Shown here piece by piece: positions 4,294 through 36,200 of a stretch of 64,000 nucleotides of DNA; positions within the stretch are counted from its first letter, which is position 1, and every line of letters starts with the position of its first letter. The stretch lies in NCBI GenBank assembly GCA_023667185.1, contig JAMPAP010000002.1, forward strand, positions 150,978 to 214,977, read 5' to 3'. The DNA comes from Lachnoclostridium sp. (GTDB taxonomy: Bacteria; Bacteroidota; Bacteroidia; Bacteroidales; Muribaculaceae). The notes under the pieces were generated by a model, which searched no databases, was not told where the DNA came from, and was given only the letters and a program-made list of their open reading frames with translations. The position numbers were made by a program, and so were the translations under genes.

Positions 4294-6300
4294 ATGAGAA
4301 AACTATTTATACTGCTTATCCTGACCACTCTCTCGATGACTGTGTTTTTTACGGCCTGCTCGGATCATGATAAGCATAACGCTATGGCCATGAGGGATAT
4401 TGACACCATAGCTGATAAATACTATGCAAGGATATACTCTGATCCCCTGTATGCCGATAGCGGACTGACAGCCTTACGGGCCTCCCTCTCTGACAGTGAC
4501 CAATATCACTCGATCAGCTCGATGCTTGCTCTTGTGAAGCTCGTAGAGGGAAATGCTCAGGCAAGTGACTCCATCCTGAATGATGTGCGCCGTTTCGTGG
4601 CAAGTAACGATGCCCGGTATGCCCGCGAACGCCTTGCCATTACCATAGCGGTAATCAACTCATTGTATGGGCGTAACGAAGCCGCTTGTGACGATTTTAT
4701 TATTGCCTATCGTCTTTCAGTAGAAAATAAGGACTGGCTGAACGCTATCAAGAATATGGCTAACGTAGGAGAGCTGACAGAGTTACTCGGCGACCCGGCC
4801 GAGGCTGTAATCTGGCTCCGTAATACCCTCGTGCTTGCTGACTCAGTGGGGATCTCTGACATGGACTTCTCAGTGAGGACACGCCTTGCCGGAACATATA
4901 CCTCGATGCAGAATTTTGCCGAGGCTGATCGTCTCTTTGCCCGCAATGAGCCGTTAGTAGATGCCGAGCCGCCGTCAAATCAGTTCTTCTATTATTCAGC
5001 CCGAGGCAATAGCCTGTATTACCGTCAATTGTATGCTCCTGCGCTGAAGGATTTCAAGCTTGCGGCGGCTACGTTGGCTAAGCTTGGAGACCCATACATG
5101 GAGGCCGTCACTATGACTAACATCGGCGAGGTATATATGTATCTCGGGCAGCTTGATTCGGCTCAGTATTATGTTGACCGCGCTGTTAAGACCTTTGATG
5201 AAATAGCTGTCAATGATCCGGGGCAGCTCTTTTATCTCAACTCCCTGCGGGGCGACCTGGAGATGCGTCTCGGAAACCTTGCCGAGGCACGACGGCTTCT
5301 TATGGCTATTGATCCTGATTCAGTAAGCATCACACCGCGCTATATCGCCGTGCATCATCGCCGTCTACAGGACTTTTATCAGGCTATAGGTGACTATAAG
5401 AACTCACTCAATCACCTCATAAAGGCCGATGTGATCGACGATTCGCTGCAGAACCTTATAGCCCGTAACTTCTCCGAAGAGGTGGACAACCGATATTCGC
5501 GTGACACCACCGTGCTCCACGCCCGGCTACGTGTGTCGCAGAAAGAGGAAGAGATCTCGATGCTCTATCTGTGGATTATAGGGTCAGTGCTCGTGGGTAT
5601 TGTTATCATCTTTGTACTCATTATCAATCAGGTAGTCCGACGACGCAGGGCTGCCCGCCAGCTGGAAGAGATGCGCGATTCACTTATAGGAATACGTATG
5701 GAGAGCACCCGTAACCGTATATCGCCGCATTTTATCTTCAATCTGCTCAATAATGAGCTGCCTGATGATAACGTCAATGTGCGCAATCTTGTTAACCTCA
5801 TGCGCCTTAATCTTGACCTGTGTAACCAGCCGGTCATCACTCTCAGTGAAGAACTTAACTTCATCAAGCTCTATGTCAATGTGGTGCGTGATTCCATTGG
5901 CTCGGATCTGAAGTTTGATGTGAATATATCCTCAGATATTGATCCTGACAAGGTGGAGATTCCATCCATGATGCTGCAGATCTTTGCAGAGAATGCTATC
6001 AAGCATGGTCTGCGCGGATATGAGGATCCCGGAAAGAGGTTGATTATTGATATCCGGCGTGCCGACAGCGGCATTGAAGTGAGCATCTCTAACACCACTC
6101 TGCCAGGCCATTACAAGGCCACGGGTGGCACGGGCACTGGTATGCGCGTAGTAAGCCAGACCATAGCGACACTCAACACCCGCAATCTTCAGCCCATAGA
6201 AATGTCACAGAAGGTGGAATCGCTCCCTGACGGTCATGAAATGTACACTGTGAAAATCTTCTTCCCTGACGGTTACGATTACACAATGCTCGAACATTGA
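4294..6300 (+). CDS. LytS/YehU-type sensor histidine kinase with a periplasmic TPR-like region; no response regulator gene adjacent
   Basis: Lipobox-type signal (VFFTAC), a TPR-like helical repeat region and a TM segment (LWIIGSVLVGIVIIFVLII). The His_kinase motif is RISPHFIFNLLNN and the HATPase motifs are FAENAIKHG and GTGTGM. Confidence 0.85.
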   Translation: MRKLFILLILTTLSMTVFFTACSDHDKHNAMAMRDIDTIADKYYARIYSDPLYADSGLTALRASLSDSDQYHSISSMLALVKLVEGNAQASDSILNDVRRFVASNDARYARERLAITIAVINSLYGRNEAACDDFIIAYRLSVENKDWLNAIKNMANVGELTELLGDPAEAVIWLRNTLVLADSVGISDMDFSVRTRLAGTYTSMQNFAEADRLFARNEPLVDAEPPSNQFFYYSARGNSLYYRQLYAPALKDFKLAAATLAKLGDPYMEAVTMTNIGEVYMYLGQLDSAQYYVDRAVKTFDEIAVNDPGQLFYLNSLRGDLEMRLGNLAEARRLLMAIDPDSVSITPRYIAVHHRRLQDFYQAIGDYKNSLNHLIKADVIDDSLQNLIARNFSEEVDNRYSRDTTVLHARLRVSQKEEEISMLYLWIIGSVLVGIVIIFVLIINQVVRRRRAARQLEEMRDSLIGIRMESTRNRISPHFIFNLLNNELPDDNVNVRNLVNLMRLNLDLCNQPVITLSEELNFIKLYVNVVRDSIGSDLKFDVNISSDIDPDKVEIPSMMLQIFAENAIKHGLRGYEDPGKRLIIDIRRADSGIEVSISNTTLPGHYKATGGTGTGMRVVSQTIATLNTRNLQPIEMSQKVESLPDGHEMYTVKIFFPDGYDYTMLEH

Positions 6301-6564
6301 TGAAAATCATACGTTTGGTTGTTAAATTGTGACGTATATCCAAAACTTCATTTCCCTGCTTTTGACGCCTCGAAAAAACGCCTGATTTTCGCGGTGTTAT
6401 GGATTTTATTTCTTATCTTTGCGTGTATTACTGTCTGAACGACAGACGGTTTGTCGCGGGCTTTTCAAAGCTCTTAAAGCTGCGGTTAAACGTCTTAAGA
6501 TTAGATGGTTATATGTGCAATATAGTAAATTAATTATCTTTTACAACTGATATATCTGAAGAAA

Positions 6565-9500
6565 ATGAAGGACTTTTCATTGATTCTTAACACCGGAATC
6601 CAGTTTTACCAGCTGGACAACGAGGTTACGATTGACCTTAATGAGAGCGTGATGAAGGCATTACGCTACTATGTCTACCAGTTCCGTGACACTATCTACA
6701 TGGATCCCGTGTACTATTTCCCCATGAAAGACAAATTCCTGCGACGTAATGACCTGGTAACTAACGGATATCTTGACCCGAATACCAATGTCATGGCTCC
6801 TGAGGAAGTGATAAACAACCATGTCAACTGGCTTGAGGATGATACGCTACTCTCGGTCAACGGCCTTGATGTGACTATCGGCGATGAACGTCTTTCAGGT
6901 ATCGAACAGATTGAAAATCAGTGGCTCCCCATTCCTTTCTATGAGAAAGACCGCGACGGATCGTTCTCCTATCCGGTCAACTGGTGTCGTATCAAGCTGG
7001 TGCCGGTGAAGGAGAAGAGTACCGCTCACAAGAAGGTCTACAAGGCAGTGATGGCATTTGATACCAACGAAAATCTCCAGTATGCTGATCGCAGCCCCCA
7101 CTTCAATAATGGCCAGCCTTTCAAGGATTATGCCATGTGTGGTATCTCGCAGAAGGATCTCGACAATATGACTGACTCTGACCGCAAGCGCGTCAACTCA
7201 ATGATTGTCCCCCTGCGCGCCTACGAGTTTGTAGATACAAAGAAAAACCCCGAGCTCGACGGTTACCTCCGTACTATCCTCCACAGCAGTCCTGACGGAA
7301 AGCAGGAGGATGTGCGTGACCGCGTGAAATATCTCGCCTATTATACTTACCTGATAACTTACCTGCAGCTGAAGCATATCTTCCCTGACGTAAGATTGTA
7401 TAATGACGTCAATCAGGCTGTTATCAAGACGAATCTTGTGCTCGACGTAGGTAACTCCCGCACATTTGGCCTTATAGCCGAGGATCCGTTGAACGCATCA
7501 TTCTCCAAGGCTTCACCCATAGAGCTGCGTGACCTCTCCACCGGCCAGATTTACGACAAGCCCTTCGATATGCGTCTGTGCTTCCGCCGCGAGCTGTTCG
7601 GGCTCAGCACCAGCGACCGCCAGTTCCGCTGGCCGAGCTATGTGCGCCTCGGCGAAGAAGCTCTCCGCAATATCTACGATGGCGATCAGGATCTCGACAG
7701 TAACGAGGAGTTTGAGACAAACCATTCAAGCCCCAAGCGTTATCTCTGGGATACAGCACCTTACTGCGGCGAGTGGAAATTCGTTTCGGAGAAAGACCGC
7801 TACATCGGCCCGGCCATGAAAGTAAGCATCGAGGGACTTGATGAGCAGTTTGCTACCGATGGATCCTTCGTGGCTGACCCCATGAACTTCGGCGTCAAGA
7901 GCAGCTACTCCCGCTGCTCGCTGATGACCTTCTGCTTCCTGGAGATACTTCTTCAGGTAAGAATGCAGATCAACGGCGTGAAATTCCGTGAGAAAAACGG
8001 TAACGAAAGCCGCAAGCGTCAGATTTCCCGCGTGATACTTACATGCCCTACAGCGATGAGTCGCGAGGAACAGAAGACTCTCCGCAAGTGTATGGAGGAT
8101 GCGACCATCGTGCTCCGCCGCTTCTATAACGATTCGTATAACGAAGTCTATAATCCTGAGAATGATAAAGATAAAGTGGAAATCATCCCCTCGGTGAAAG
8201 ACCTTGCCAAGAATGCCGACAATTATGAAATGCGCCGCAACTGGATATACGACGAGGCTACCTGCTGCCAGATGGTGTATCTCTACTCCGAAATGCGCCG
8301 CTACTTAGGTAATGTCAATGAGTTTTTCGACCTCTACGGTATGCGTCGCAACGGCGAACCGCAGAAGTCGCTCACAGTGGCTTCAATCGACATAGGTGCC
8401 GGCACCACTGACATCATGATCTGCAACTACCGCAATGGAGGTGAGACGATTATACCTACGCCTCTTTTTTGGGAAACATTCCATATCGCCGGCGACGAGC
8501 TCGTGAAACGCGTGATTATCGACGTGCTTATCAACGATCCCCAGGAGAAGTTCCGCGGTGCATCCGGCCTGATTACCGATAAGCTCCGCTCCATAGGCTG
8601 CCCCGACATTCCTAATACCAAGGCTCACTTCTTCGGCGACACTCAGGCTATGGGAGTAAAAGAAAAACGTATGCGCAAGGAGTTTAACGTGCAGGTGCTC
8701 ATCCCTATAGCCAACTATCTTCTCGACCTTCTCCAGAAAAATGAGGAGGATCGCATCATCAAGTTTGACGACATCTTTACCACAACCCGTCCTTCAAAAA
8801 CACTGCTTGACTTCTTCGCCAACCAGATGGGCTTCCGCTTCGAGGAAATGCCTATCAAATATTCGCGCGAGTTTATGAACGACATCGTCAGCAAGGTATT
8901 TGAGCCGTCGATGCGCAAGTGGGCTGCAATATTCTACAGCTACAAGTGCGACATCGTGCTCATGGCCGGCCGCCCCTGCTCGCTCGAGCGCGTCCACAAG
9001 ATGCTGCTTCGCCTCTATTCCGTATCACCCAACCGCCTCATCTCGATGAACGACTACCGTGTAGGCTCATGGTATCCCGGCTCAAGCGACATCGGTCACT
9101 TCGGCGACAAGAAGTCGATGGTGGCTGTAGGTGCCTTGATATCTTATCTGGCTGAGACCGGCAAGCTGTCATATCTCCGCCTGAATACTGAAAACCTGAA
9201 AACCAAGATATTACCTACGAGTGACTTCATCGGCCTGCTCAACTCCAAGACGGGCTCACTCACTCCGCTGCTTACTCCGGAAATACGTCGTGCTCGCATG
9301 GAAATCTCAGGCTTCCCCATCCGCATCGGCACCAAGCAGATCAATATCGGCGGCTATCCTTCACGACTTATGTATGTACTTGACTTCAATGAGGATTTCA
9401 TCCGTCGTAAGGCTATTGAAAATCTTATCAACCAGCTCGGACTACCCATGTCGGCCAAAGAAACCGATATCTCACCTGACTATATTGTCAACGAGATGGA

Positions 9501-9717
9501 TACGCTGAAATTCCGTACCAAGCGCGCCACGCCGCTTACCTTCGCCTTCGAACGCGAGTTTAACACTGACAAGGAGCTCATCAAGATCGAAAGCGTGACT
9601 AACGCCGAGCGTGACGAGATCTCACCCAAAATGTTCAGCCTCAAGCTGCAAAGCTGGGATGAAGATGAAAACAACTGGCTCGATTCCGGTAAATTCATCA
9701 TGCAGATCAGCGAATGA
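6565..9717 (+). CDS. SrfB-like protein: large actin/Hsp70-fold (ASKHA) ATPase
   Basis: Phosphate-1-like VLDVGNSRTFG (about 7438), phosphate-2-like SIDIGAGTTDIM (about 8383) and an adenosine-like VLMAGRPCSL. It is 1050 aa and precedes a large P-loop protein, as in srfB-srfC. The N-terminus (LILNTGIQFYQLD) resembles my memory of SrfB. Confidence 0.6.
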   Translation: MKDFSLILNTGIQFYQLDNEVTIDLNESVMKALRYYVYQFRDTIYMDPVYYFPMKDKFLRRNDLVTNGYLDPNTNVMAPEEVINNHVNWLEDDTLLSVNGLDVTIGDERLSGIEQIENQWLPIPFYEKDRDGSFSYPVNWCRIKLVPVKEKSTAHKKVYKAVMAFDTNENLQYADRSPHFNNGQPFKDYAMCGISQKDLDNMTDSDRKRVNSMIVPLRAYEFVDTKKNPELDGYLRTILHSSPDGKQEDVRDRVKYLAYYTYLITYLQLKHIFPDVRLYNDVNQAVIKTNLVLDVGNSRTFGLIAEDPLNASFSKASPIELRDLSTGQIYDKPFDMRLCFRRELFGLSTSDRQFRWPSYVRLGEEALRNIYDGDQDLDSNEEFETNHSSPKRYLWDTAPYCGEWKFVSEKDRYIGPAMKVSIEGLDEQFATDGSFVADPMNFGVKSSYSRCSLMTFCFLEILLQVRMQINGVKFREKNGNESRKRQISRVILTCPTAMSREEQKTLRKCMEDATIVLRRFYNDSYNEVYNPENDKDKVEIIPSVKDLAKNADNYEMRRNWIYDEATCCQMVYLYSEMRRYLGNVNEFFDLYGMRRNGEPQKSLTVASIDIGAGTTDIMICNYRNGGETIIPTPLFWETFHIAGDELVKRVIIDVLINDPQEKFRGASGLITDKLRSIGCPDIPNTKAHFFGDTQAMGVKEKRMRKEFNVQVLIPIANYLLDLLQKNEEDRIIKFDDIFTTTRPSKTLLDFFANQMGFRFEEMPIKYSREFMNDIVSKVFEPSMRKWAAIFYSYKCDIVLMAGRPCSLERVHKMLLRLYSVSPNRLISMNDYRVGSWYPGSSDIGHFGDKKSMVAVGALISYLAETGKLSYLRLNTENLKTKILPTSDFIGLLNSKTGSLTPLLTPEIRRARMEISGFPIRIGTKQINIGGYPSRLMYVLDFNEDFIRRKAIENLINQLGLPMSAKETDISPDYIVNEMDTLKFRTKRATPLTFAFEREFNTDKELIKIESVTNAERDEISPKMFSLKLQSWDEDENNWLDSGKFIMQISE

Positions 9718-9759
9718 TTTTCAAGTGCACAAATTTACTAATTCTGACTACTTCTTAAA

Positions 9760-12700
9760 ATGGAAAACAAGATAATAGATGCTCAGATGAGCGCTAACGG
9801 AGCAGGTCTCGGCTGGGGACGCTCTTTTCTCAAAGGATCTGACCTGCGCGAGCTTCGCAGCGATCTAATCCGTAACCGTATCGACCTGCGTCGCATCCGC
9901 TATGCTGCCAGTGTCAACCCTGCAGCCGCTATCTTCGGCAAGAGCCAGGTGGGTAAGTCGTATATGGTTGACTGTCTGCTGACAAGCGAGACCAATCCGC
10001 TTACTGTATACGATGCCCAAGGTAATGCCCATGGGTTTATCGAGAAAATCAATCCTACCGGTAATGGTAAGGAGGCCACTTCGCTGATTTCACGCTTCAC
10101 TACCCAGAAGGTGTGGAAAGATGAGCGATTCCCGGTGAAGGCTATGATGCTTTCGCCCGTCGATGTAGTGCTCGTGCTCTGCGACACATATTATAATGAC
10201 GTAATGGGTCACAAAGTGCCTAACGACGAGGCGATAAATGCCGAGATCCAGCGCCTGCGCGAAACTTACGGCAACCGCCCCGCCGTGCAGACCATCATCG
10301 GCGAAGATGACATGATGGAGCTCCGCGAATATTTCACTCTCGGGCTGATGGAACAGCGCCCTGATTTTCAGGAAGCTCTTCTCCGCCTTAACTACTTCGA
10401 GACTCTCTCGGAGTTGATAGACGCTGTCCCCGTCGCTGCCTGGGCTGATGTGTTCTCCTTCCTTTGGAATCGTAATCCTATTATCACCGAGGTGTTTAAC
10501 AAGTTGATCAATACTCTCGAGCGCCTCGACTTCAGCCCCACAGTATATATAAAAATAGCTGCTGTGGACAAGTATCTCGGCACCATCCTCCATGTTGACC
10601 GTATCTATGAGCTATTCGGTATCACCGAGCTTGACGATGAGAAAAATGGCAAGACCATGATCGAGAAGGCTAAAGAACCTCTGATGGTGGCACTTACCGA
10701 GAATGGGAAGGAGGTAGAGAATATCGAGAAGAGTGTGTTCTGCGCCTTGGCCATGGAGGTCGACTTTACCATTGTCAATCCTGATGATGCATCATCGAGC
10801 GAAAAGCTGCTCAAGGAGAAGCCTTTCCTTCATGATCTTGACATCCTCGACTTCCCCGGTGCACGTTCACGCCAGAAAAACCCCGAGGCCGATATCACCA
10901 AGAAGGATGCCTCGCTTATGCTTATCCGCGGTAAGGTGGCATATCTGTTCAACAAGTATTCACAGCAATATCTTATTACCAACCTCCTTTTCTGCCACGA
11001 TGATACTCAGAACGAGGTTAATACGCTGCCTACCCTCCTTAAGAGCTGGGTAGAGAAAACCGTCGGTAAGACTCCCTCGGAGCGTGAAGTTTTCCTCCGC
11101 ACGGCCGAGGTGTCGCCCCTCTTCGTCATCGGCACAAAGTTTAATATCGAGCTCAAGCGCCGCGACGTCGACTCCAAGGGTAGCGCCGAGCAGCGCGAGC
11201 AGGAGAAGCGTAACCGCTGGATCAAGCGTTTCAGCATCCTGAGCAGTGTGATTTCGGCTTCGATCAAGAGCCCGTGGGAGCTCGAGTGGACCCCCGGCAA
11301 GGCGTTTAAGAATTTCTATATGCTGCGCTCGTTTGAATACTCTTGCCTCGATGGCCTTTATGAAGGCTATCAAGAGAAGGATGACAACGGCGACTGGGTG
11401 CTTTCGCGTAACGCCGATGGTACGCTCCGCGGTGAGCAGCGCGTCAGCGATGACTATAAGGACTTCTTCGCCGGACTGAAATCCACATTCCTTCAGAATG
11501 AATATGTGACCGAGCACTTCGAGGACGCCTCGAAGTCATGGGATGAGGCTGTTGCTCCCGGCAAGGATGGCTCGGCTTGGATTATCGAGAATCTTACCCG
11601 CTCGGGCCGCAACATGAAGGCTGCCCGCGAGCAGACCTTCTCACGCCTGTCGGACAGCGCCATGACCAAGCTGTGCTCAGCCTTGAAAAAGCATTTCCAT
11701 GATGATAACTCTGACTCCGAATTGCGCCGCGCCCTCGAAAGCGCCGGCCGTATCGAGCTGCTGTTTGATGCTCTATTCGGCAAGGACAAATATTTCTTCT
11801 CTGATTTCATCAACGCCTTGCTCGTGCATGAGGATGAGATCAATGACACTATCCTTTGCACAGTAAATTCCATCAAGGTGCTCGACGATACTGATATGTC
11901 CGTGCTCTTCGCTATCCGTAACCGCGCCAAGATCGTCGCTCCTTACACTGAGGATGAACATGGCAACCGCACACCCGTTGACCTTGAAGAGAACATGAAG
12001 GAAAACCGCCGCCGTATGCGTGAGACGTATCACTTCTCTACTGATGAGGAGCTTGACGAGTTCCTTGCCGGCATGAAGCTCACCATGGAGGATATTATCA
12101 ATCCGCCTATGGTGCGTAACCTTGCGCGTATCATCGTCGATGCCGTCGAGAAATATTGGATGGATACATATCTGTCGCTTGAAAACTTCAGCGAGTTTGT
12201 TGAGCGTGGTATGTCAGAGAAGGGCATCGAGACCCTCCTCAGCAATATGCGCGTGCTCTACAAAGATAAACTGCATATGTCAGAGCGCCTGACTGCCCGT
12301 CTTGCTCCCTACGTTACAGCCCGCGAGAACCTCGACGATATGGCCGAAATGCTCGCCGACATATGCGCCGAGATGCTCAACAAGTTTATCAACACCATAG
12401 GTACATCCTATTTTGAGGAAGAACTTTGGAAAGACGTTCACGCCACCGTGGATCATAATGGCTTTGATATCAAGGTGGATGCTGCTGAGTATGACTCCGA
12501 TATTGACTTCGATGGCGAGAAGACCCGCGAAGGCCTCAACGACGTGTTTGACGTGTTTGATAATGTTGATGTAATCCTCAATCAAGTGCCCGTGGATACC
12601 GAGAAACTTTCATATTTCTCCAATTATCATGCTTTCCGCGAGTGGACTGACATGATGAAGATTGCCTTCCTTGCCACTTGCGGTATCCCCAAATATGACG

Positions 12701-12813
12701 TGGTGATGAATAATGAGCTCCGCAACGTGCTTGTAAAATACATAGTCGATAACGATAATCTCAAGCCCATGCTTAAGCCTGAATATGGCCTGAGCGAGCT
12801 TGCTACTCTTTGA
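9760..12813 (+). CDS. SrfC-like large P-loop (dynamin-like?) GTPase
   Basis: Walker A FGKSQVGKSYMV (about 9934), DxxG-type LDILDFPGARS and a possible G4, GTKFN. It is 1017 aa with a long helical C-terminal part. Confidence 0.55.
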   Translation: MENKIIDAQMSANGAGLGWGRSFLKGSDLRELRSDLIRNRIDLRRIRYAASVNPAAAIFGKSQVGKSYMVDCLLTSETNPLTVYDAQGNAHGFIEKINPTGNGKEATSLISRFTTQKVWKDERFPVKAMMLSPVDVVLVLCDTYYNDVMGHKVPNDEAINAEIQRLRETYGNRPAVQTIIGEDDMMELREYFTLGLMEQRPDFQEALLRLNYFETLSELIDAVPVAAWADVFSFLWNRNPIITEVFNKLINTLERLDFSPTVYIKIAAVDKYLGTILHVDRIYELFGITELDDEKNGKTMIEKAKEPLMVALTENGKEVENIEKSVFCALAMEVDFTIVNPDDASSSEKLLKEKPFLHDLDILDFPGARSRQKNPEADITKKDASLMLIRGKVAYLFNKYSQQYLITNLLFCHDDTQNEVNTLPTLLKSWVEKTVGKTPSEREVFLRTAEVSPLFVIGTKFNIELKRRDVDSKGSAEQREQEKRNRWIKRFSILSSVISASIKSPWELEWTPGKAFKNFYMLRSFEYSCLDGLYEGYQEKDDNGDWVLSRNADGTLRGEQRVSDDYKDFFAGLKSTFLQNEYVTEHFEDASKSWDEAVAPGKDGSAWIIENLTRSGRNMKAAREQTFSRLSDSAMTKLCSALKKHFHDDNSDSELRRALESAGRIELLFDALFGKDKYFFSDFINALLVHEDEINDTILCTVNSIKVLDDTDMSVLFAIRNRAKIVAPYTEDEHGNRTPVDLEENMKENRRRMRETYHFSTDEELDEFLAGMKLTMEDIINPPMVRNLARIIVDAVEKYWMDTYLSLENFSEFVERGMSEKGIETLLSNMRVLYKDKLHMSERLTARLAPYVTARENLDDMAEMLADICAEMLNKFINTIGTSYFEEELWKDVHATVDHNGFDIKVDAAEYDSDIDFDGEKTREGLNDVFDVFDNVDVILNQVPVDTEKLSYFSNYHAFREWTDMMKIAFLATCGIPKYDVVMNNELRNVLVKYIVDNDNLKPMLKPEYGLSELATL

Positions 12814-12840: not shown

Positions 12841-15438
12841 ATGCAACGAATATTAGGACAAAGTGATTATAACTCTTTCACCCACCATTTCAATGCCAAC
12901 GAACCGGTGGTGAAAAATCCGCGCATCAGCTCTTTTATGGCTACGCGTCTGCCCGGCCTTGACGATGCTTCACGTAAGGCACTCGCCAATCCGTATTTCA
13001 GCGGTATGCCGGGTAAGGAGCAGGTGATGTGGCAGACTGACGCCTTCGAAAGCGAGCCCGTAAGACTTAGTGACCTTTCCGGTGCTGAGCGCGAGAAATA
13101 TGAGCGTATTCTCGACAAGACTATGCGCTCGATAGCCCGCTCCGTGGAGCAGACTGACGATGAAATGAAGCGTGTGATGAAAGAGGCTGTCACATACCAT
13201 TCGCCCGATACCGTATACTGTGCTGATGATCGCGTGGTGATCACCGAGTGGGGTATGCATCCCAAGTCGCGTAGCGATTTCAGCAGCCTGCCACTGGGCG
13301 TGCAGCTCGATGAAACCGGTGAGCCCACCGGCAATTCTTCAGCTTCTGAGACTCCTGAGACTCCTGGAAATTCTGGAAATTCCGGGAATAATGAGAATTA
13401 TGGGAATACAGAGAACAATGAGAATACCGGGAACAATGAACCGGAATCTCCCACACCTCCCACACCTCCCACTCCACCCACACCTCCTGTTCCACCCGTT
13501 CCACCCACAACTCCACCTACACCCCCCGTTACTCCCACACCCCCGGTGAAGCCCTCCGGCGATTCCGGCAACTCCGGCGGCAAGAATAAGAAGGGGTGCC
13601 TCAAGAAGCTGTTGAAGTGGCTGCTCATAGCTCTTGGTGTGCTGTTGCTGCTGTGGTTGCTGTCAAGTCTGCTGAAGTCGTGTGACGGTTCCTCAACCCC
13701 CGGCTCGGAGGATATTGTGGCACTACCACCAGAAATTGACCCCGAGGAGGATATAGTGGAGAGTCCTGACTCGATGACTCGTATCGTGGCCAATCGCCTG
13801 ATCTTGCTTATCTCGGATGGTGGCACGGTCAACGAGTTTGTCGATGCGTTTTATGCCAAGTACCCTGACAAGAAGAAATACACCTTCGCTAATCCTGATA
13901 CGTTGATCCCGCGCGTAGTGCTTGTGCTGCCCGCTGATGAGCGTGAGGGGATGATAGAGCGGTTGCCGTCAGAGTTCCCTGACTGGGATCTCGTGGTGCT
14001 TCCCGAAACTCTTTTCGGCGGCTCGATGATACCTGACGATCCGGCATTCGCTGACCCTGAGAAGAGATGGTATTTCGACATGACCTCGACATTTGACGCC
14101 TGGGACACCACCCGTGGCGACAAGAAAATCAAGATAGCTATCATCGACGACGGCTTTGACCTGAATCATCCCGAAATCAAGGGTAAGGTGGTGGATCAAT
14201 ACAATGCCGTCACCCACACCCGTGATGTCTTCCCGCAGAAGGATGGCCACGGTATGCACGTAGCAGGCACGGCTGCCGGTATCGCCGGTAACCACGAGGG
14301 TATCTCCGGTATCGCCCCTGACTGCGAACTTATGCTCATCCAGGTAGGCGACCGTAATGGGGTGATGTCAACCTCGGCCGTGATTGATGCCGTGCTTTAT
14401 GCCATCAGCAATGGCGCCGATGTGGTAAATATGTCGCTCGGTATGGAATTTAACCCTATGCTGCAGCTCGCTCCCCCTGAAATGCAGGAGGAAATCATCC
14501 GCAACCAGTTTCTCGAGGAGGAAGGGATGTGGAACAAGATTTTCGAAATGGCCGATAAGAAAAACGTAACGTTTGTGCTTGCCGGTGGTAACCAGAACCT
14601 TATTATCGGCCTTGACCCGATGCAGCGCTCGTCACGCACCATCAAGGTGTCGGCCGTAACGCCCACCAAGGAGAAGGCTGACTTCTCCAACTATGGTAAA
14701 TACTCCACCCTCTCGGCTCCCGGTGTAAATATCTACAACGCCTTCCCCGGCGGCAAGTATATCTCGTATCAGGGTACGTCGATGGCCTCGCCCATCGTGG
14801 CCGGTGGTGTGGGATTGCTGAAGAGTGTTGAGCCGTCGCTCACAACGGCACAGATTGCCAACATCCTGCGCGAAACGGGTATAGAATCGCCCAGCGACGT
14901 CGGCCCGATAGTCAACTTCGCCCGCGCACTTGACCTCCTTAAAGAGAAGGGACCTGATGCCGGAACCGGTACCGGGGACACTGACTGCGACAAGATTCGC
15001 GACCGCTATCTGGAGCTCACTGAGGAGATAGAGCGCATCCGACGCGAGCATCCCGAGTGTGTCGATGCTATTGACACTCTCGAGATCCCGGTAGGTGTGG
15101 CGCTCACTGACTTGCGTGGTCTTTACCAGAGTACCACCAAGATTGTTAATGTGTCCGGCGAGGATGTTGTGATCTTCCTGTCGTTTGATGGAACGCCCAC
15201 CGGCGGTGTGATGCTCGTAGAGCCTTCGGGCGCTAAGTTTACTGCCTCAACATCAGTGTCAGTCTCCGGCGACAAGATCCTTATTCACCAGAATGGACCG
15301 GCCGAAGGCACGAGTGGCGGGTATCTGCCTTACGACTTTACCCTCATTCCTGACCGCGACCGTAAGGCGCAGGGTACAGCTGTAAATCAATCCGATCCTC
15401 GCAACAGGGTTCGCTTCCAGCTTATCCGCATAAAGTAA
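12841..15438 (+). CDS. Membrane-anchored subtilisin-like (S8) serine protease. Domain order: cytoplasmic N-domain, N/G/E- and Pro/Thr-rich linker, single TM, periplasmic S8 domain, C-terminal beta domain
   Basis: Catalytic triad motifs IAIIDDGFD (about 14146), DGHGMHVAGTAAG (about 14248) and GTSMASPIVAGG (about 14779). The TM segment WLLIALGVLLLLWLLSSLL is preceded by KNKKGCLKKLLK (positive-inside rule). Confidence 0.85.
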   Translation: MQRILGQSDYNSFTHHFNANEPVVKNPRISSFMATRLPGLDDASRKALANPYFSGMPGKEQVMWQTDAFESEPVRLSDLSGAEREKYERILDKTMRSIARSVEQTDDEMKRVMKEAVTYHSPDTVYCADDRVVITEWGMHPKSRSDFSSLPLGVQLDETGEPTGNSSASETPETPGNSGNSGNNENYGNTENNENTGNNEPESPTPPTPPTPPTPPVPPVPPTTPPTPPVTPTPPVKPSGDSGNSGGKNKKGCLKKLLKWLLIALGVLLLLWLLSSLLKSCDGSSTPGSEDIVALPPEIDPEEDIVESPDSMTRIVANRLILLISDGGTVNEFVDAFYAKYPDKKKYTFANPDTLIPRVVLVLPADEREGMIERLPSEFPDWDLVVLPETLFGGSMIPDDPAFADPEKRWYFDMTSTFDAWDTTRGDKKIKIAIIDDGFDLNHPEIKGKVVDQYNAVTHTRDVFPQKDGHGMHVAGTAAGIAGNHEGISGIAPDCELMLIQVGDRNGVMSTSAVIDAVLYAISNGADVVNMSLGMEFNPMLQLAPPEMQEEIIRNQFLEEEGMWNKIFEMADKKNVTFVLAGGNQNLIIGLDPMQRSSRTIKVSAVTPTKEKADFSNYGKYSTLSAPGVNIYNAFPGGKYISYQGTSMASPIVAGGVGLLKSVEPSLTTAQIANILRETGIESPSDVGPIVNFARALDLLKEKGPDAGTGTGDTDCDKIRDRYLELTEEIERIRREHPECVDAIDTLEIPVGVALTDLRGLYQSTTKIVNVSGEDVVIFLSFDGTPTGGVMLVEPSGAKFTASTSVSVSGDKILIHQNGPAEGTSGGYLPYDFTLIPDRDRKAQGTAVNQSDPRNRVRFQLIRIK
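13331..13580 (+). repeat. Low-complexity coding repeats (GNS/NEN units, then PTPPTPPTPPVPP units)
   Basis: Reiterated short units gagactcct, ggaaattct and cccacacct seen directly. The overlapping alternate-frame ORFs are artefacts of this tract. Confidence 0.85.
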
Positions 15439-15482: not shown

Positions 15483-16361
15483 ATGAAAACGTTTCTTTCA
15501 ATTGTAAGTGTAATAGGCACATTGCTTTGGGCTACAGCCTTTTTCTTCGGATTCAACTACTACGTTGGCGGCGCGCTGATGCTGTCAATACCATTGGCGG
15601 TTTTCCTCGCGCTGATCCTCGGCGGCTCTGTTTTCCTGATGATCAAGAAAAGCCAGGATAAGGACTCTGTATCGCGTCGCACCGAGCGCCTTGCCATTGC
15701 AGTATATGTGCTGTTCAGCCTCCTCTCAGTTGCCTTCATCGGCCACTTCGTGGATGTCACCCTCAATAAGAAGAAGGCTATTCAGGACGAGGCCCTCGCC
15801 CAGATCGAGGAACTGTCGCTCACATTCGATGCCGGCGATGGTTCGCCCCGCGCCGGTAGCTATGAGGAGTATGTGGCTGACAATGTGTATACTTACGGTA
15901 ATAACCTTGAAGGCCTTGAACCCGGCACTATTGATGCCAAAAAGAGCGAGCTGATGTCAGATCTGCTCGATGATGGCTTCGTTGAGCTTCAGGATTATGT
16001 AAACCAGGAACTTGACTACGCCAAGGGTACTATCGAAGGATGGAACTGGCTTTATGTGTCACAGCGTCTCGACCAGCTCGAAAAGTATAAGGGTGATTGG
16101 GAAACCAGCGTTGCGGTTCAGTCACGCAATTCTGACTATACAAAGAGCACCATGGACTTCTATAAGCCGACATCCGTCCACAACAACTTCGAGATCTTCA
16201 ACGGCCTTAGAACCCTCGACTTAGCCGGATGCTTCAACATCTACACCATCCTCCTCGTGGTAGTGCTCCAGTTCATGATGATCTTCATCTACTTCGCCGC
16301 CCGTCCCAACCGTATGCACGGCCCTGAAAAGCCTAAAGGCTCTGAAGTTGAATCTTGGTAA
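15483..16361 (+). CDS. Integral membrane protein (3 N-terminal TM, soluble loop of about 150 aa, C-terminal TM); no recognised family
   Basis: Hydrophobic segments VIGTLLWATAFFFGF, LMLSIPLAVFLALILGGSVFLMI, LAIAVYVLFSLLSVAFIGHFV and IYTILLVVVLQFMMIFIYFAA. Confidence 0.65.
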   Translation: MKTFLSIVSVIGTLLWATAFFFGFNYYVGGALMLSIPLAVFLALILGGSVFLMIKKSQDKDSVSRRTERLAIAVYVLFSLLSVAFIGHFVDVTLNKKKAIQDEALAQIEELSLTFDAGDGSPRAGSYEEYVADNVYTYGNNLEGLEPGTIDAKKSELMSDLLDDGFVELQDYVNQELDYAKGTIEGWNWLYVSQRLDQLEKYKGDWETSVAVQSRNSDYTKSTMDFYKPTSVHNNFEIFNGLRTLDLAGCFNIYTILLVVVLQFMMIFIYFAARPNRMHGPEKPKGSEVESW

Positions 16362-16412: not shown

Positions 16413-17954
16413 ATGCCATTCGATCATACAAAACTATCAATTTATACAGTGCCTCAGCTCATTGAGTTTATGAAGTCAGGTGAAGTAACTTTTGAAGAAC
16501 TTCAGCAACTCGGTCTTCCATATTTCAAGCAGGATGAGATACGCAAATTCCTCGCTGAAAAGGATATATGGGAAGCCGCCAAAATGACTCAGGAAGGTAT
16601 CAACAACTATCTTGCCACTTATCCCAACGGCTTCTTCGTGGATGAGGCCGGTGCAGCAATGACTGCTGCAAAAGAAGAAGGAGTTTGGCAGTGGGCTTGC
16701 GACGAAGATAATGTTGCAGCCTATAAGCGCTACCTCAGCAAATATCCTACGGGCAAGTATGCTATTAAAGCCGAAATGAGAATTGAAGAACTTGAGGAGA
16801 TAGAGAAAAATCTGAAGGAGGAGATTTTCAATGATATGCGCGAGAACTTCTGGAACTATTCTTATATGAAGATGCGCCAGCTCTATAATCCCCAGCCTCT
16901 TACTCCAGAGCAGAAAGACTTCCTCGCTTCGCAGGATGATGCTTATTCACGATTTGTAGCTAACGGGTTGAAACTGACTCATCAGGATCTGATCGATAAT
17001 GGTGTAGTTCCTGAGGGCGTCACCCAGTCAGAAGTTTCTTCACCTGAGTTTACGATGCCTGCTACTAAAATTGAAGAACTCGGTATGTTCCCCAAGGATC
17101 GCACTGACATATTCTTCCTCGGTGTGCCTCGTTCGGGTAAGTCTTCAGTTTTATCGGGTGTGATTTATCAGCTTTGGCGCGATGGTTTTGCCGGCTATGA
17201 GCCTCAACTTGTAAATGGTGTAGACCCTTGTATGGCCTATTATCAGGGTCTTATCCGTGCGGTTGCCACCAAGAAGCCGCCGGTAGGTACGGCTACTGAT
17301 ACAGTGTCGTTCATGAAAATAGACCTTGTGCATGGTAAGCGTCGCAACAAGCTGACTATTGTCGAGATGGCAGGTGAAGCTTTTAAAAGAGCTGCCGAGC
17401 GTATTGCCAAAGGTAATGGAAATCAGGAAGAAGTGTGGAAGGAACTTGGCGCCGAACAGTGCTTAAGAAGCAAGAATCAGAAGATGCTCTTCTTTGTGCT
17501 TGACTATAGTGCTGTCAAGGGTATAAATGAGGCATGCTCCGCATTTGATCAGCTCGAGATCCTTGAATCAGCTCTCCGAACCTTGAGTACCGATGGCCCT
17601 GACCCCCAAAATCCTCGCAAGGGTTGTACAATGAGCCGTGTTGAAACTGTAGCCGTGCTTGTGACAAAAAGCGACCTTATGCAGCAGTCAACAGTGCAAG
17701 GACGTCTTGCCGAGGCAAGAGCCTATATGGAAGATAACTTCAAGAACTTCATGCGTGAACTGATGGATATGTCACGTGAATTTGGTTGCAACAGGGTTAA
17801 CGATTACCGTCCTTACTTCCTTACTTTCAGCCTCGGAAATTTCTACGTAGGAAATACTGTCGTATTTAATCCTGATGATTCCAAACGAATTATTGACTTT
17901 ATCCGTACGGCTACTCCATCAGAATCGATTGATCGTTTCCGCTTCTTTAACTAA
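16413..17954 (+). CDS. TRAFAC-type GTPase-like protein with a helical N-terminal region (two YxxxYPxG repeats)
   Basis: G1 FFLGVPRSGKSSVL (about 17120), G3-like LTIVEMAGEAF and G4 VLVTKSDL. It is a paralog of 28332..29456. Confidence 0.65.
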   Translation: MPFDHTKLSIYTVPQLIEFMKSGEVTFEELQQLGLPYFKQDEIRKFLAEKDIWEAAKMTQEGINNYLATYPNGFFVDEAGAAMTAAKEEGVWQWACDEDNVAAYKRYLSKYPTGKYAIKAEMRIEELEEIEKNLKEEIFNDMRENFWNYSYMKMRQLYNPQPLTPEQKDFLASQDDAYSRFVANGLKLTHQDLIDNGVVPEGVTQSEVSSPEFTMPATKIEELGMFPKDRTDIFFLGVPRSGKSSVLSGVIYQLWRDGFAGYEPQLVNGVDPCMAYYQGLIRAVATKKPPVGTATDTVSFMKIDLVHGKRRNKLTIVEMAGEAFKRAAERIAKGNGNQEEVWKELGAEQCLRSKNQKMLFFVLDYSAVKGINEACSAFDQLEILESALRTLSTDGPDPQNPRKGCTMSRVETVAVLVTKSDLMQQSTVQGRLAEARAYMEDNFKNFMRELMDMSREFGCNRVNDYRPYFLTFSLGNFYVGNTVVFNPDDSKRIIDFIRTATPSESIDRFRFFN

Positions 17955-17972
17955 CAAAACACGATTTTACTA

Positions 17973-20900
17973 ATGATCCAAGATATAGGTTTAGTAATCT
18001 GGGGCTGCAAAGGCGGATGCCGCACGTTCTGCAACAATCGCGTCATTAACGTCGAGGAGCCCGTCATTCGCCAGACTTTAAAAGATGTTCGTTCATCAAT
18101 ATATTTTAAGCGTTCCGGCCTTGACTATTATGCAGTGGAGTTTACGCAGCGCTACAAGGTGTATACCCACTACCGCTCGTCGAACGACTCCGGAGGTGGT
18201 GCATTTATCGCCATAACGATTTATGTACCTCACAATCTTATGATTAAAAATGTCCGCTCGATTCTCGACGAGATGATTGTGCTTTACTTCAAGGAGTACA
18301 TGAACCCGATGTCCTACACTCCGCTCCCCGGCAAGTATGACGACATCAATATGTTCCTGCGCATACTCGATGAGCATCAGAATGATATCGTCACTGATCG
18401 CCGCGGCTATGCTTACCATCCCTCAGAGCAGGATGATCGCCCTCAGATTATCAAGTATAATGATGTAACTGAGATAGATAAGTATTTCGAAAATCCTTAT
18501 CATAAGGAATTTTTCGCCTGCCAGGAGGTAATGTTCCTGCGTAGCGAATACTACGACCGTCCACAGGAATTTGACATCGACTTCGTGCAGCGGCTCCAGC
18601 TCATCGACAAGGTGTCAGAGTCAGTGCGCATGAACCGTCTGCTCCCGTTTGACAAGCCCGGGAAGAAGCTCAGTCGCCTGATAATTAATGGAGATGACTT
18701 TACCAATGATAAGGATGGCGCGTCGCTCGACAAAAAGGACCTCGTCAGCTTCACCATCGAATCCGCCGACGATCGATATGAGCCGATGAAGGCTGACAAC
18801 ATCACCGTCGAAGATATGCTCCGGCGTAGGTTGATTCGCAAGAAAGGTGATGATTACGAGTGGGATGACATTATTCTCGACAAACGCACGTATGAGTTGA
18901 AAGTAAGTGCCTCGCCTGAGAGCAGTGTCAGGATGCGCGACTTCGCTGCCCACCTTCAGCTCGTTATAGGTAAAGGCAAATATCATGCAACGGTGATGGC
19001 TGATGGTACGGCTCGATTCCTTTTGCGAGGCCCCGAGGTTGACCAGGAGTGTACTCTCGTATTCGGGTATGACGAAAAGACCGATCTGCCAATCCAAAAG
19101 GTTGTTCCCGCGCAACATCTTGACAATGGCCTCACCGTAGCAGCCGACGAGCATCAGTTGAAGGTGAAATTAGAAGGCTTTGATGGTGATAGTCCTCTCG
19201 TTGAGGCAGAGGTCAAGTTGGCCGGCGACACTGTCTATACTCCTATTGAAGATAATAAGATATATACACCTGTAATCAATGGTGAGCACGCCACTGTAGG
19301 CATCAGAGCCCGGGATTGTAACGTCAAATTCAATGGCGATGCATGGGTGGTTACGCCCACAGTTGTCAGGGTTAAAGTGTTCATCCCCAAGGAAATATCC
19401 GGCTTGTTAAAGCGTATAGGAGCAAAGGTGTCATTTAATGGCAAAACTTATGGCATTAATGACTCGGGTAAGGTATCGCTTCCTTATGGTTGGGAAGAAA
19501 ACGGCGAAATGCCTGAAATTCAGCTGACTGATGAAAGCGGGGTGGTTAGACAGCCGATGAACTACGAAGGTGGATACCTTCGCTTTACCGGATGTGTGAT
19601 CTCAAACAAGACACGCGAGGCAGTAAAGCTATCGATTAACGGAGAAGAGAAAACATTTAAGGCACGTACTGAATTTTTTCACTACAACGTCGACGGCAAA
19701 TATAACATTGATTTTGCCAATCCTTTAGATAAGGATCTCATGAAGATCTCTTCCTCGCAAAAGGATGGATTCACTTACTATGTCGTTGAGCCAAAAGATC
19801 GTGACATCGTTGTAATTCCCGGAGGAGACTCTCACTCTGGCAACTCCAAGTCTAAGGATAAGAACGATAGTAAGGCTGATAAAAAACTGCCGTTCGGCGG
19901 TAAAGGTCGTATTCTCTTCCACGCTTGTAAGGGATACTTTACTTTTGAAGGTGAAGACAGAATTAAATTCGATAAGACGATCGAAATCACAGTCAAACAG
20001 CAAGTATATAAGATTTTTGATCCAGGCAATAGAGAAGTGGGTTCTATCAATGTTTCAAATCCATGCGATTATACTACCGGACAATTTGATGTGAAGTATA
20101 AAGAAGAAAATGGATTGAAAATATGGGAAGTAACTTATCGCAAAACATTTATTGACAAATTCATTGACTTTGTTACCTCGAAGCTCGGTCTTGGACTGAT
20201 CGGTCTCCTGGTGGTATTGGTAATTGGAGGCTGGATTGCCTGGCCTCACCTCTTCGGCGCAAAGGAATACACAGCAACTATCACCTTCACCACCGATGAT
20301 CCCATTGCTTCAATTACGGTGGTGAAGCCGGAGAATGGAATTACGATTACCCCCAGTGAAAGCACCATCACCATTAGACGTAGCAAGGACGACAAGAACC
20401 AATTTGCCGGAACCGCATTGCTTAAATTCTCGTACAAGGATGAAGGCGATACCGAAAAGATGCTGAAAGATCTGCCCGACGTTGATATGAAATCTCTCCG
20501 TGCGGTTCTCAGCGAAAACCATGAGAAAGATGCCTCCACTGCATTTACGGCAGCTGCGCCTCAGTCACCGGCTCATGTTGAGTATCTTGACATAACGTCG
20601 GTTACTCCTCTTGACTCAGCCAAAGTCGCTAACTTCCAAACGCAATATCAAGGTTCAAATTACGAGAAGAAGTTAACCGAGTCTTATGGCAAACAAGTGG
20701 CAGCCGAAGAGGAAGAGAAGGCTAAAAGAAACGCAGAAGAAGCCTCTCATCAAAGTCTCGTTGATAAGTATAACAAGCTCCTTGAAAAACTGAATAGTAT
20801 GGATGTTATGGCTTCAGATGTCGCAGTAATTGAGGCTTTCGAAACTGTGCATAGGAAAGACCTTGCAAGGGAAATCGCAGCCAATCGCGCCAAAGTCAAG

Positions 20901-22798: not shown

Positions 22799-22801
22799 AA
22801 G

Positions 22802-30949: not shown

Positions 30950-30969
30950 TAAAAAATTTAATACCAGAT

Positions 30970-31899: not shown

Positions 31900-31920
31900 A
31901 AAGAAATAAATTTACATTAT

Positions 31921-36179: not shown

Positions 36180-36200
36180 ACTATTCACAAAGTGTAAATC

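Follow-up and report, generated by a model that had tools for sequence, protein, structure and literature searches.

A candidate Bacteroidota form of the Srf system, with SrfA-N domains predicted on a membrane-anchored subtilase and on a second cluster protein

A 64,000-nucleotide (nt) stretch of DNA recorded as Lachnoclostridium sp. and placed by GTDB in the Muribaculaceae of the Bacteroidales (assembly GCA_023667185.1, contig JAMPAP010000002.1, positions 150,978 to 214,977 of the forward strand; hereafter the window) carries homologs of the proteobacterial genes srfB and srfC. A sequence-only reading of this DNA took the two genes for a srfBC pair without srfA. Our analysis points elsewhere: SrfA appears to be present in the cluster, in the gene that immediately follows srfC, whose product begins with an SrfA N-terminal domain (SrfA-N) and continues across one transmembrane helix into a periplasmic S8 subtilase that looks active. 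The explanation we favor, with a probability of about 0.55 for the whole, docking mechanism included, is that the srf genes and the genes downstream of them form one long operon, the Bacteroidota form of the Srf system, in which SrfA-N domains would dock SrfB and SrfC at the membrane.

Profile–profile comparison carries the SrfA-N assignment. When a 60-sequence profile of Bacteroidota S8 N-termini was aligned with a five-sequence SrfA-N profile (hhalign), the match reached a probability of 99.4% and an expectation value (E) of 2e-21 over 138 columns, pairing residues 3-146 of the window's S8 protein with residues 4-149 of Salmonella SrfA; a reversed-sequence control reached a probability of 0.2%. 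BLASTP with Salmonella SrfA gave N-terminal matches to a Runella S8 peptidase orthologous to the window's protein (E 8e-6), a Cereibacter trypsin-like serine protease (E 7e-8), and a 422-residue Cereibacter gene product encoded just before srfB (E 1e-7). Compared directly with the window proteins by BLASTP, Salmonella SrfA gave no match, and detection of SrfA-N needed the Runella and Cereibacter intermediates together with profile methods. Standard domain libraries gave no signal: Pfam has no SrfA model, Salmonella SrfA itself matching nothing there, and the NCBIfam SrfA model matched none of the first ten cluster proteins at E <= 0.01, the S8 N-terminus included.

Along the fusion protein, SrfA-N (residues 3-146; nt 12847-13278) gives way to a Pro/Asn-rich low-complexity linker and then to a single transmembrane helix at about residues 255-278; a Lys-rich stretch just before the helix suggests an N-in topology. 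The extracytoplasmic subtilase occupies residues 428-680 (Pfam Peptidase_S8, E 1e-47) and has its Asp/His/Ser triad intact, with the triad motifs kept in 64 S8 sequences (63 orthologs and the window's own). The lipocalin-like periplasmic domain that ends SrfA was not found; by Pfam, the extracytoplasmic part of the S8 protein is Peptidase_S8.

A second SrfA-N domain lies further on in the cluster, in a 408-residue protein (Table 1). It matched a proteobacterial SrfA-N hidden Markov model (HMM) at E 1e-7 and a combined HMM at E 2e-9, and hhalign aligned it both with SrfA-N (97.8%, E 1e-12) and with the S8 N-terminus (98.2%, E 5e-14), reversed controls being negative. These two proteins gave the only SrfA-N matches among all six-frame open reading frames (ORFs) of the window, with none upstream of srfB. 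The claim that the pair comes without srfA is therefore overturned.

SrfA-N is not confined to these proteins. With the S8 N-terminus as query, 102 carriers were found among 1.84 billion representative proteins, the domain being N-terminal in nearly all; the 66 carriers scanned for partner domains had S8 (42), Flg_new repeats (12), or, in a few, vWA or other domains. Among Proteobacteria, SrfA-N is fused to a trypsin-like protease in Cereibacter, and in Klebsiella and E. coli it also opens the "tellurite resistance domain protein" whose gene directly precedes srfA (E 2e-11). SrfA itself joins SrfA-N to a lipocalin-type C-terminus (bioRxiv 10.64898/2026.09.18.752743). On these alignments, SrfA-N looks like a portable N-terminal membrane adaptor, usually present in several copies per cassette, and its fusion to periplasmic serine proteases appears to have come about in both phyla, each time with another protease fold; this speaks against a chance neighborhood. 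Thousands of genes annotated as "S8 family serine peptidase" beside srfBC would then be SrfA equivalents and need their annotation corrected.

SrfB is predicted to be a cytoplasmic Hsp70-like ATPase with intact catalytic motifs. The Pfam SrfB profile PF07520 matches it over positions 12-991 of 992 (E 4.3e-160; 535 bits, gathering cut-off 27.1). Its phosphate-1 (VLDVGNSRT, residues 292-300, nt 7438-7464), phosphate-2 (SIDIGAGTTD, residues 607-616, nt 8383-8412), and adenosine-type (MAGRPCS, residues 800-806) motifs are kept in the Salmonella, Klebsiella, Rahnella, Cereibacter, and Runella homologs, and D294/G296/N297/S298, D609/G611/G613/T614/D616, and G802/R803/P804 are invariant in a 35-sequence alignment. 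An AlphaFold2 model built from that alignment (predicted local distance difference test, pLDDT, 88.4; predicted template-modeling score, pTM, 0.90) retrieved full-length Hsp70s as its top Foldseek matches (DnaK, BiP, and Ssb; E 1e-14 to 1e-10), DnaK 4b9q coming at E 2.6e-14 with probability 1.0 and about 790 aligned columns; against the isolated DnaK nucleotide-binding domain, the target-normalized template-modeling score (TM-score) was 0.63. SrfB thus resembles Hsp70 in its full-length modeled fold and in all three motifs. It differs in its greater length, with a β-rich N-terminal extension of about 280 residues and large insertions; in that no J-domain or GrpE partner was found for the cluster; and in that the cluster has, further downstream, another gene whose Hsp70 nucleotide-binding domain looks canonical.

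SrfC, in turn, is predicted to be a cytoplasmic GTPase of the bacterial dynamin-like class with intact G1 and G3 motifs. It matches Pfam Virul_Fac PF10139 over profile positions 21-802 of 878 (E 2e-99; 334.5 bits, gathering cut-off 28.1). G1 reads GKSQVGKS (residues 60-67, nt 9937-9960), G3 reads DFPG (residues 364-367, nt 10849-10860), and a G4-like TKFN (residues 459-462) appears as T-x-x-D/N in homologs elsewhere; the G1 and G3 residues are invariant in a 36-homolog alignment and recur across phyla as G-x-S-Q-x-G-K-S and D-x-P-G, in the same five genera as the SrfB motifs. The AlphaFold2 model (pLDDT 83.8, pTM 0.70) matched SynDLP 7zw6 (E 9.5e-7), SynDLP MGD (E 6.5e-4), and BDLP 2j69 (E 2e-3) in Foldseek, followed by mitofusin, Fzo1, and IniA, with query TM-scores of only 0.14-0.18, so that the assignment supports a fold class only. 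A large GTPase domain with a helical stalk is what the model shares with bacterial dynamin-like proteins (Nostoc BDLP, SynDLP, LeoA, DynA, IniA) and mitofusins; what sets SrfC apart from them is the lack of detectable sequence similarity and the TKFN reading of G4. The dynamin-type (Eleos/LeoA) models of PADLOC did not match it.

For neither protein did the hydrophobicity scan find a hydrophobic segment. In sequence searches against the PDB, SrfB showed no similarity to any chain and SrfC none to any solved structure, so both folds are taken from structure prediction. On these two genes the sequence-only reading was sound: ORFs, sizes, and the four motifs it had listed (two in each protein) agree with the coordinates and translations, the HMM matches bear out its SrfB and SrfC family assignments, and the ASKHA and P-loop GTPase folds it expected agree with the models matching Hsp70/DnaK and SynDLP/BDLP.

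Both genes stand at the head of a much larger cluster, as had also been proposed: from 6565 to 38374 there are 20 ORFs, all on the + strand, with srfB and srfC first and no intergenic gap above 51 nt. Ahead of srfB, one octamer (Table 1) fits TAnnTTTG, the Bacteroides -7 promoter consensus; a chance match to such a box is plausible within the 265-nt intergenic region. Scans for sigma-70 promoters and for terminators gave no excess over shuffled sequence, terminator-like sites in the scanned 22-41 kb stretch being no commoner than in shuffled sequence.

We surveyed synteny in 83 related loci. Partners of SrfB were SrfC in 81, S8 in 67, and the P-loop GTPase in 65, most exceptions being on contigs that end early; about 65 of the 83 Bacteroidota loci share the order SrfB-SrfC-(SrfA-N/S8)-membrane protein-GTPase. 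Recurrence of S8 protease and vWA genes beside srfBC, which the sequence-only reading had singled out for a survey in other phyla, was seen across Bacteroidota loci, with vWA also in proteobacterial cassettes and a serine protease in Cereibacter. Neighborhoods of the vWA/stalk protein led to two relatives at 63-85% SrfB identity, L084 and L085, which keep the array in full. Only the core is kept in the distant loci L091 and L092 and on a Runella plasmid: SrfB, SrfC, SrfA-N/S8, the polytopic protein, the GTPase, the large bitopic protein, three to four small proteins that are exported or bitopic, the protein joining SrfA-N to beta-sandwich domains, and the stalk protein. This envelope-associated core of about 12 genes, headed by SrfB, SrfC, and SrfA-N/S8, appears from gene order and homology to be conserved across Bacteroidota, from Cytophagales to Bacteroidales. 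The 3' ends of distant loci differ: one locus encodes a CARDB/Cleaved_Adhesin protein there, another has GH25, vWA, LytTR, LRR, and caspase-like genes.

These data bear directly on the alternative that srfBC is a free-standing two-gene unit without SrfA, its downstream genes being unrelated neighbors. One could cite for it that no cluster protein matches SrfA in Pfam or NCBIfam, though Pfam has no SrfA model at all. We consider it highly improbable given that SrfA-N is found in two cluster proteins by profile–profile and HMM comparison, that gene order is conserved in at least 65 loci from several orders with gaps of at most 51 nt, and that Runella keeps the same core with two of its genes fused into one.

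The remaining core genes encode further membrane, exported, and nucleotide-binding proteins (Table 1). A gene of the same size as that for the 292-residue polytopic protein stands at the same position in every locus inspected gene by gene, and BLAST detects it in 24 of the 83. The 513-residue P-loop NTPase (nucleoside triphosphatase) scores E 0.0027 and 17.8 bits against Pfam DO-GTPase2, below the cut-off of 27; among 25 members of its family, Pfam reports DO-GTPase2 in five (best 5.6e-8), DO-GTPase1 in five, and YfiO in four. Its 374-residue paralog has no DO-GTPase match in Pfam and has orthologs in L084 and L085; this second gene was seen in the window's clade only, distant clusters examined having a single copy. 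The 1037-residue bitopic protein has no Pfam, NCBIfam, or PADLOC match, and four orthologs also lack a Pfam match; orthologs occur in L004, L005, L007, L084, L085, and Runella. An identity as a GAP1 protein found no support: neither it nor the four orthologs match GAP1 in Pfam. The exported trio shows weak SMC/coiled-coil-type matches only, with orthologs by position and BLAST in L084 and L085.

The second SrfA-N protein and the stalk protein together appear to form a membrane-anchored stalk ending in vWA. A 1101-residue Runella protein aligns to both and is a fusion of the two. The 629-residue stalk/vWA protein has 144 homologs, several on contigs that also bear SrfB homologs. The architecture of this region is fluid. 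L084 (7644-11896) and L085 (7487-11869) have an extra stand-alone vWA gene (363-370 residues) between the SrfA-N/beta-sandwich and stalk genes, which the window lacks, its vWA domain being at the C-terminus of the stalk protein instead; Runella was compared over L086 35903-39208.

Table 1. Features of the window in and around the srf cluster (aa, amino acid residues)
Feature	Position	Strand	Description
TPR/LytS-type histidine kinase	4294-6300		Upstream of srfB; TPR/His_kinase (Pfam)
Candidate promoter TATCTTTG	6414-6421	+	About 145 nt 5' of the srfB ATG; fits TAnnTTTG; read directly from sequence
srfB	6565-9717	+	1050 aa; predicted Hsp70-like ATPase; no transmembrane segment, no signal peptide
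srfC	9760-12813	+	1017 aa; predicted dynamin-like large GTPase; long helical stalk after the GTPase domain
srfA-like fusion gene	12841-15438	+	865 aa; SrfA-N, linker, transmembrane helix, S8 subtilase
Polytopic membrane protein	15483-16361	+	292 aa; four hydrophobic segments; core member
P-loop NTPase	16413-17954	+	513 aa; GVPRSGKS; TPR/BamD-like N-terminal region; distant DO-GTPase relative; core member
Bitopic protein of unknown fold	17973-21086	+	1037 aa; transmembrane segment at about residues 738-756; core member
Bitopic protein	21095-21985	+	296 aa; paralog of the C-terminal third of the 1037-aa protein (BLASTP 56% over 108 aa, E 3e-33)
Three exported proteins	21992-25215	+	268-aa lipoprotein (lipobox LILTAC); two 402-aa coiled-coil proteins with signal peptides
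Second SrfA-N protein	25217-26443	+	408 aa; SrfA-N at about residues 19-144 (nt 25271-25648), then MG4/CarboxypepD_reg beta-sandwich domains (Pfam MG4)
Stalk protein	26436-28325	+	629 aa; N-terminal transmembrane anchor (WWWLLLLLLPLLLLI); CarboxypepD_reg/SpaA-like beta-sandwich repeats; C-terminal vWA at residues 435-560
Second DO-GTPase-like NTPase	28332-29456	+	374 aa; paralog of the NTPase at 16413-17954 (BLASTP 27% over 382 aa, E 2e-38)
Accessory module, five genes	29495-36692	+	484-aa tail-anchored, 309-aa bitopic coiled-coil, 833-aa Hsp70, 585-aa kinase-AAA+, 163-aa TerB-like
TIR-TM-Sel1 gene (TM, transmembrane)	36692-37744	+	350 aa; N-terminal TIR, transmembrane segment, low-complexity linker, Sel1; Pfam TIR_2 E 1.7e-12, Sel1 E 3e-17; PADLOC TIR-type matches
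Last co-directional ORF	37763-38374	+	203 aa; exported; signal-peptide-like N-terminus; 18-nt gap after the TIR gene

Compared with proteobacterial srfABC (Salmonella, Xenorhabdus stockiae, Klebsiella, E. coli, Cereibacter), the window's cluster shares full-length SrfB and SrfC, which are about 25-27% identical and have their ATPase and GTPase motifs in common; SrfA-N, the pseudokinase-like domain of Salmonella-type SrfA, borne within the operon by a bitopic membrane protein; at least two SrfA-N proteins per cassette; and a vWA protein downstream, TerB-type domains nearby, carriage by mobile elements and, in Cereibacter, a serine protease on SrfA-N. The differences are equally specific: the order is srfB-srfC-srfA' as against srfA-srfB-srfC, with no separate srfA gene upstream of srfB; an S8 subtilase stands in place of the lipocalin-type periplasmic domain of SrfA; the MacB/FtsX-type ABC pair and the FGE-sulfatase protein are lacking; about nine extra conserved genes are present (among them the DO-GTPase-like NTPases, the 1037-residue bitopic protein, and the periplasmic coiled-coil proteins); and, in the window's clade, the Hsp70/kinase-AAA/TerB module and the TIR gene are appended.

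The extended proteobacterial cassette occurs in Klebsiella plasmids (114 records), an E. coli island, and Cereibacter. Its genes run (glycine zipper), SrfA-N/TerB-annotated protein, SrfA, SrfB, SrfC, an approximately 340-residue protein, vWA, ABC ATPase, MacB/FtsX-type permease, and FGE-sulfatase-domain protein, to which Cereibacter adds the SrfA-N/trypsin-like protease. The srfB genes of the 12-gene cassette are 99.7% identical between Klebsiella IncFIB/IncHI1B plasmids (L090) and the E. coli ET490 chromosome (L174 13259-34959), with the same annotated gene content; in ET490 the cassette sits in an island between a tRNA-Phe-associated integrase and IS1 copies. Among 5426 complete E. coli genomes, 33 have a Klebsiella-type cassette, and many of these 33 come from frogs in a single study. 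On a Rahnella aquatilis plasmid (L089 20017-23651), genes for an HscC-type Hsp70, a J-domain protein, and a hypothetical protein lie about 3 kb downstream of srfABC; this extra Hsp70 echoes that of the Bacteroidales cluster but may be coincidental.

Behind the core, the five-gene accessory module matches Pfam HSP70 (E 1e-68), Pkinase (E 2e-26), AAA (E 6e-34) and, weakly, TerB (E 0.0024); its 833-residue Hsp70 comprises a nucleotide-binding domain and a novel C-terminal region. PADLOC matches the kinase to PD-T4-6 and mad6 and the AAA domain to IetA. The module is separable from the Srf core: it follows the core in L084 and L085, and it occurs with no Srf gene detected in about 5-10 kb of upstream flank in L094, L098, L114, and L119 or in about 2.8 kb in L096, the L119 copy having four genes and no detectable TerB-like gene. 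Free-standing five-gene copies were found in gut and rumen metagenome contigs, and the module looks like an undescribed self-contained system. Two candidate identities found no support. The 484-residue protein (N-terminus NPFRILGV), considered as a J-domain partner of the cluster Hsp70, has no Pfam match, no HPD motif in its alignment, and no PDB match. IetAS was set aside as well, the IetA-like AAA being fused to a kinase (34422-36179) 19 kb from the S8 gene and the IetS match reaching E 0.0033 only.

The TIR gene that follows has a WVRTEIE motif in its TIR domain, a Thr/Pro/Gln-rich linker, and Sel1 repeats predicted to lie outside the membrane. Similar TIR proteins are encoded a few genes away from kinase-AAA homologs in L123 and L140. 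The last of the 20 ORFs has no homolog in related loci, and its membership in the system is uncertain.

In distribution, SrfB homologs number 2038 proteins and SrfC homologs 1039 at E < 1e-10 among scored candidates. Two SrfB peptide patterns, built from Bacteroidota sequences, matched 374 confirmed stretches of SrfB relatives in a scan of 185,579 species genomes. Bacteroides sp. and metagenome-assembled genomes (MAGs) of Bacteroidales are the nearest genomic relatives, with SrfB identities of 77-85% and, in three of them, shared upstream genes; they support a Bacteroidales origin. Relationships beyond these depart from taxonomy: SrfB of the window's clade is 56% identical to a Capnocytophaga protein as against only 31-34% to many Bacteroidales. 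The Runella plasmid copy adjoins BREX-1 and AbiEii, and the Porphyromonas canoris cluster adjoins integrase, topoisomerase, and DUF3945 genes of conjugative-element type. As to phage origin, no SrfB match was found in 50,697 phage records, and the IMG/VR contigs scanned gave one, located at a contig end. In a survey of the co-directional gene upstream of srfB at 35 loci, that gene was NusG/UpxY-like in 9, a tyrosine integrase in 4, and unrelated in the others. In L001 (9251-9931) and L002 (775-1455) the NusG/UpxY-like gene lies directly before srfB, as at capsule loci; the window has its intergenic region there instead.

For mechanism, a published AlphaFold 3 model of Haemophilus SrfABC (interface predicted template-modeling score, ipTM, 0.66) makes SrfA a platform that binds SrfB first and SrfC second (bioRxiv 10.64898/2026.09.18.752743). 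By analogy, SrfA-N domains in the window's cluster would serve as cytoplasmic docking platforms at the inner face of the cytoplasmic membrane, recruiting SrfB and then SrfC beneath the periplasmic protease and vWA modules. ATP- and GTP-driven remodeling—Hsp70-type clamping and dynamin-type membrane assembly—might then be coupled to envelope events, in an outside-in or an inside-out direction.

As to its role, we think it possible, at somewhat short of even odds, that the operon is an envelope-surveillance or conflict (anti-invader) system, extended here by the Hsp70/kinase-AAA/TerB module and a membrane-anchored TIR protein. The evidence is circumstantial; we favor this role because of the system's mobility, patchy distribution, component repertoire, variable ends, and TerB/TIR/kinase-AAA associations. 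Hints of a mobile or conflict character are the BREX-1/AbiEii neighbors, the integrases, the Klebsiella/E. coli cassette, SrfB identities off taxonomy, and the variable 3' gene content. The repertoire (vWA, a DO-GTPase-like pair, Hsp70, serine/threonine kinase, AAA+, S8, TIR) is that of the conflict systems dependent on nucleoside triphosphates described by Kaur, Burroughs, Iyer and Aravind 2020 (PMC7159879). The DO-GTPase/GAP1 systems of that paper, reported in Bacteroidetes, resemble the cluster in that the window has two paralogous P-loop GTPases distantly related to DO-GTPase1/DO-GTPase2, membrane-associated components, Hsp70, vWA, kinase, and variable terminal genes; the paper names neither SrfB nor SrfC, the term "SrfB" having zero occurrences in it.

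Several observations weigh against this role or against the kinship with known conflict systems. Pfam detects no GAP1 or GASH protein, GAP1 being the defining partner of the DO-GTPase systems, and the window's GTPases score below the Pfam cut-off. At its position the TIR gene is not kept: unrelated genes without Pfam matches stand there in L084 (413 residues) and L085 (330 residues), and it may therefore be an independent neighbor. About 3 of 93 upstream neighbor ORFs match defense models, with no clear defense-island enrichment. PADLOC 2.0, which has no SrfB or SrfC model, matches neither these two proteins nor the GTPases or the large bitopic protein with any model; its matches are generic ones only, to subtilase, PD-T4-6 kinase, IetA-type AAA, and TIR. 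The NusG/UpxY-like gene before srfB in 9 of 35 loci, as at Bacteroides surface-structure operons, fits a nonimmune envelope role equally well. Finally, published SrfABC experiments point to a cytotoxin (PMC6950479), none to defense.

A toxin or virulence factor, secreted or vesicle-borne, is the reading those experiments would suggest: Srf proteins, or S8 and vWA proteins handled by them, would be delivered to other cells, with SrfC membrane budding and SrfB chaperoning loading or releasing cargo, for example into outer-membrane vesicles. The dynamin-like fold of SrfC is in keeping with it, as are the many exported proteins, the active-looking protease, and the adhesin-type domains of the cluster, and the carriage of cassettes on plasmids and islands. 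Dynamin-like LeoA is, moreover, linked to vesicle-associated toxin release in enterotoxigenic E. coli. Set against these points, SrfB and SrfC lack a signal peptide or transmembrane segment and look like cytoplasmic NTPases, Pfam reports no C-terminal domain of the type IX secretion system type, most carriers are commensals of gut and rumen or environmental Bacteroidota, and conserved DO-GTPase-like, kinase, AAA, and TIR partners are atypical of toxin loci. SrfABC of X. stockiae is cytotoxic and insecticidal, as reported for that species only (PMC6950479), and a preprint argues for export in outer-membrane vesicles (bioRxiv 10.64898/2026.09.18.752743). Taken together, we judge this reading unlikely.

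We hold in similarly low regard the proposal that the cluster is a housekeeping-type envelope machine of Bacteroidota and no conflict system at all, serving membrane repair or remodeling, periplasmic protein quality control, or surface-structure assembly, with the Hsp70- and dynamin-like NTPases as its power and a long operon dependent on an UpxY-type antiterminator. Bacterial dynamins such as DynA and IniA do act in membrane repair, the cluster encodes inner-membrane-anchored stalk proteins, a lipoprotein, and periplasmic coiled-coil proteins, the upstream neighbors show no clear enrichment in defense genes, and 9 of 35 loci, as well as L001 and L002, have a NusG/UpxY-like gene immediately before the cluster. 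Yet the distribution is patchy (374 stretches in 185,579 species genomes, with Bacteroidota-derived patterns), mobile elements are associated, sequence relationships depart from taxonomy, and the accessory ends vary, which together argue for an accessory trait over a core one.

Beyond the operon and its possible surveillance or conflict role, a wider proposal is more doubtful than either, and we raise it tentatively. Srf would be no toxin but a widespread mobile trans-envelope machine of Bacteroidota and Proteobacteria, in which an Hsp70-like ATPase and a dynamin-like GTPase are brought to the cytoplasmic membrane by interchangeable SrfA-N adaptors, each bearing a periplasmic subtilase, trypsin-like protease, vWA, lipocalin, or TerB module. 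It might be a bacterial counterpart of adaptor/Hsc70/dynamin membrane remodeling for envelope surveillance or immunity, wired in the window's clade to the kinase-AAA/Hsp70/TerB module and a TIR effector.

For 25 years SrfABC has been called a "virulence factor" with no biochemical role assigned to it, and the extended operon offers a clearer frame for Srf function. It gives concrete, testable handles: the enzyme classes of SrfB and SrfC, an SrfA-N adaptor missed by standard Pfam and NCBIfam annotation, the core of about 12 genes, and the mobility of the cassettes. Genetics might be tried in cultured carriers, namely Bacteroides stercorirosoris (for example DSM 26884), Xylanibacter muris, Xylanibacter ruminicola, Capnocytophaga canimorsus, and Porphyromonas canoris. 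NCBI already names SrfB and SrfC in Prevotella, C. canimorsus, P. canoris, Muribaculaceae, and Saprospiraceae, so that their identification is right but not in itself new. Literature searches on SrfB, SrfC, PF07520, and PF10139 found nothing on the Bacteroidota cluster; as far as that literature shows, the SrfA-N/protease fusion, the Bacteroidota core cluster, and its modular extensions are undescribed.

Among the flanking genes, the histidine kinase that the sequence-only reading placed upstream of srfB is indeed there. Its suggested place as a stand-in for srfA does not hold, and we rejected it as a system partner: it is conserved only in the three closest relatives among the 83 loci. In C. 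canimorsus (L003 13320-15180), genes for an NT5C nucleotidase and a CAP-domain protein and a 78-residue ORF are inserted between srfB and srfC, so the otherwise invariant pair tolerates separation. Six Bacteroidales-type loci (L005, L006, L008, L045, L061, L064) come from MAG records titled "uncultured Staphylococcus sp.", "Clostridiales bacterium", "Flexilinea sp." or "Dialister sp.", titles that are likely binning or labeling errors. After a 371-nt gap beyond the cluster, the ORF at 38746-40320 encodes 524 residues with no Pfam match; a central DPxGxD-type motif (GDPINNTDPSGRD) recalls the end of an Rhs/YD core and is followed by a C-terminal domain of about 200 residues, and the protein may be an orphan Rhs-type toxin tip.

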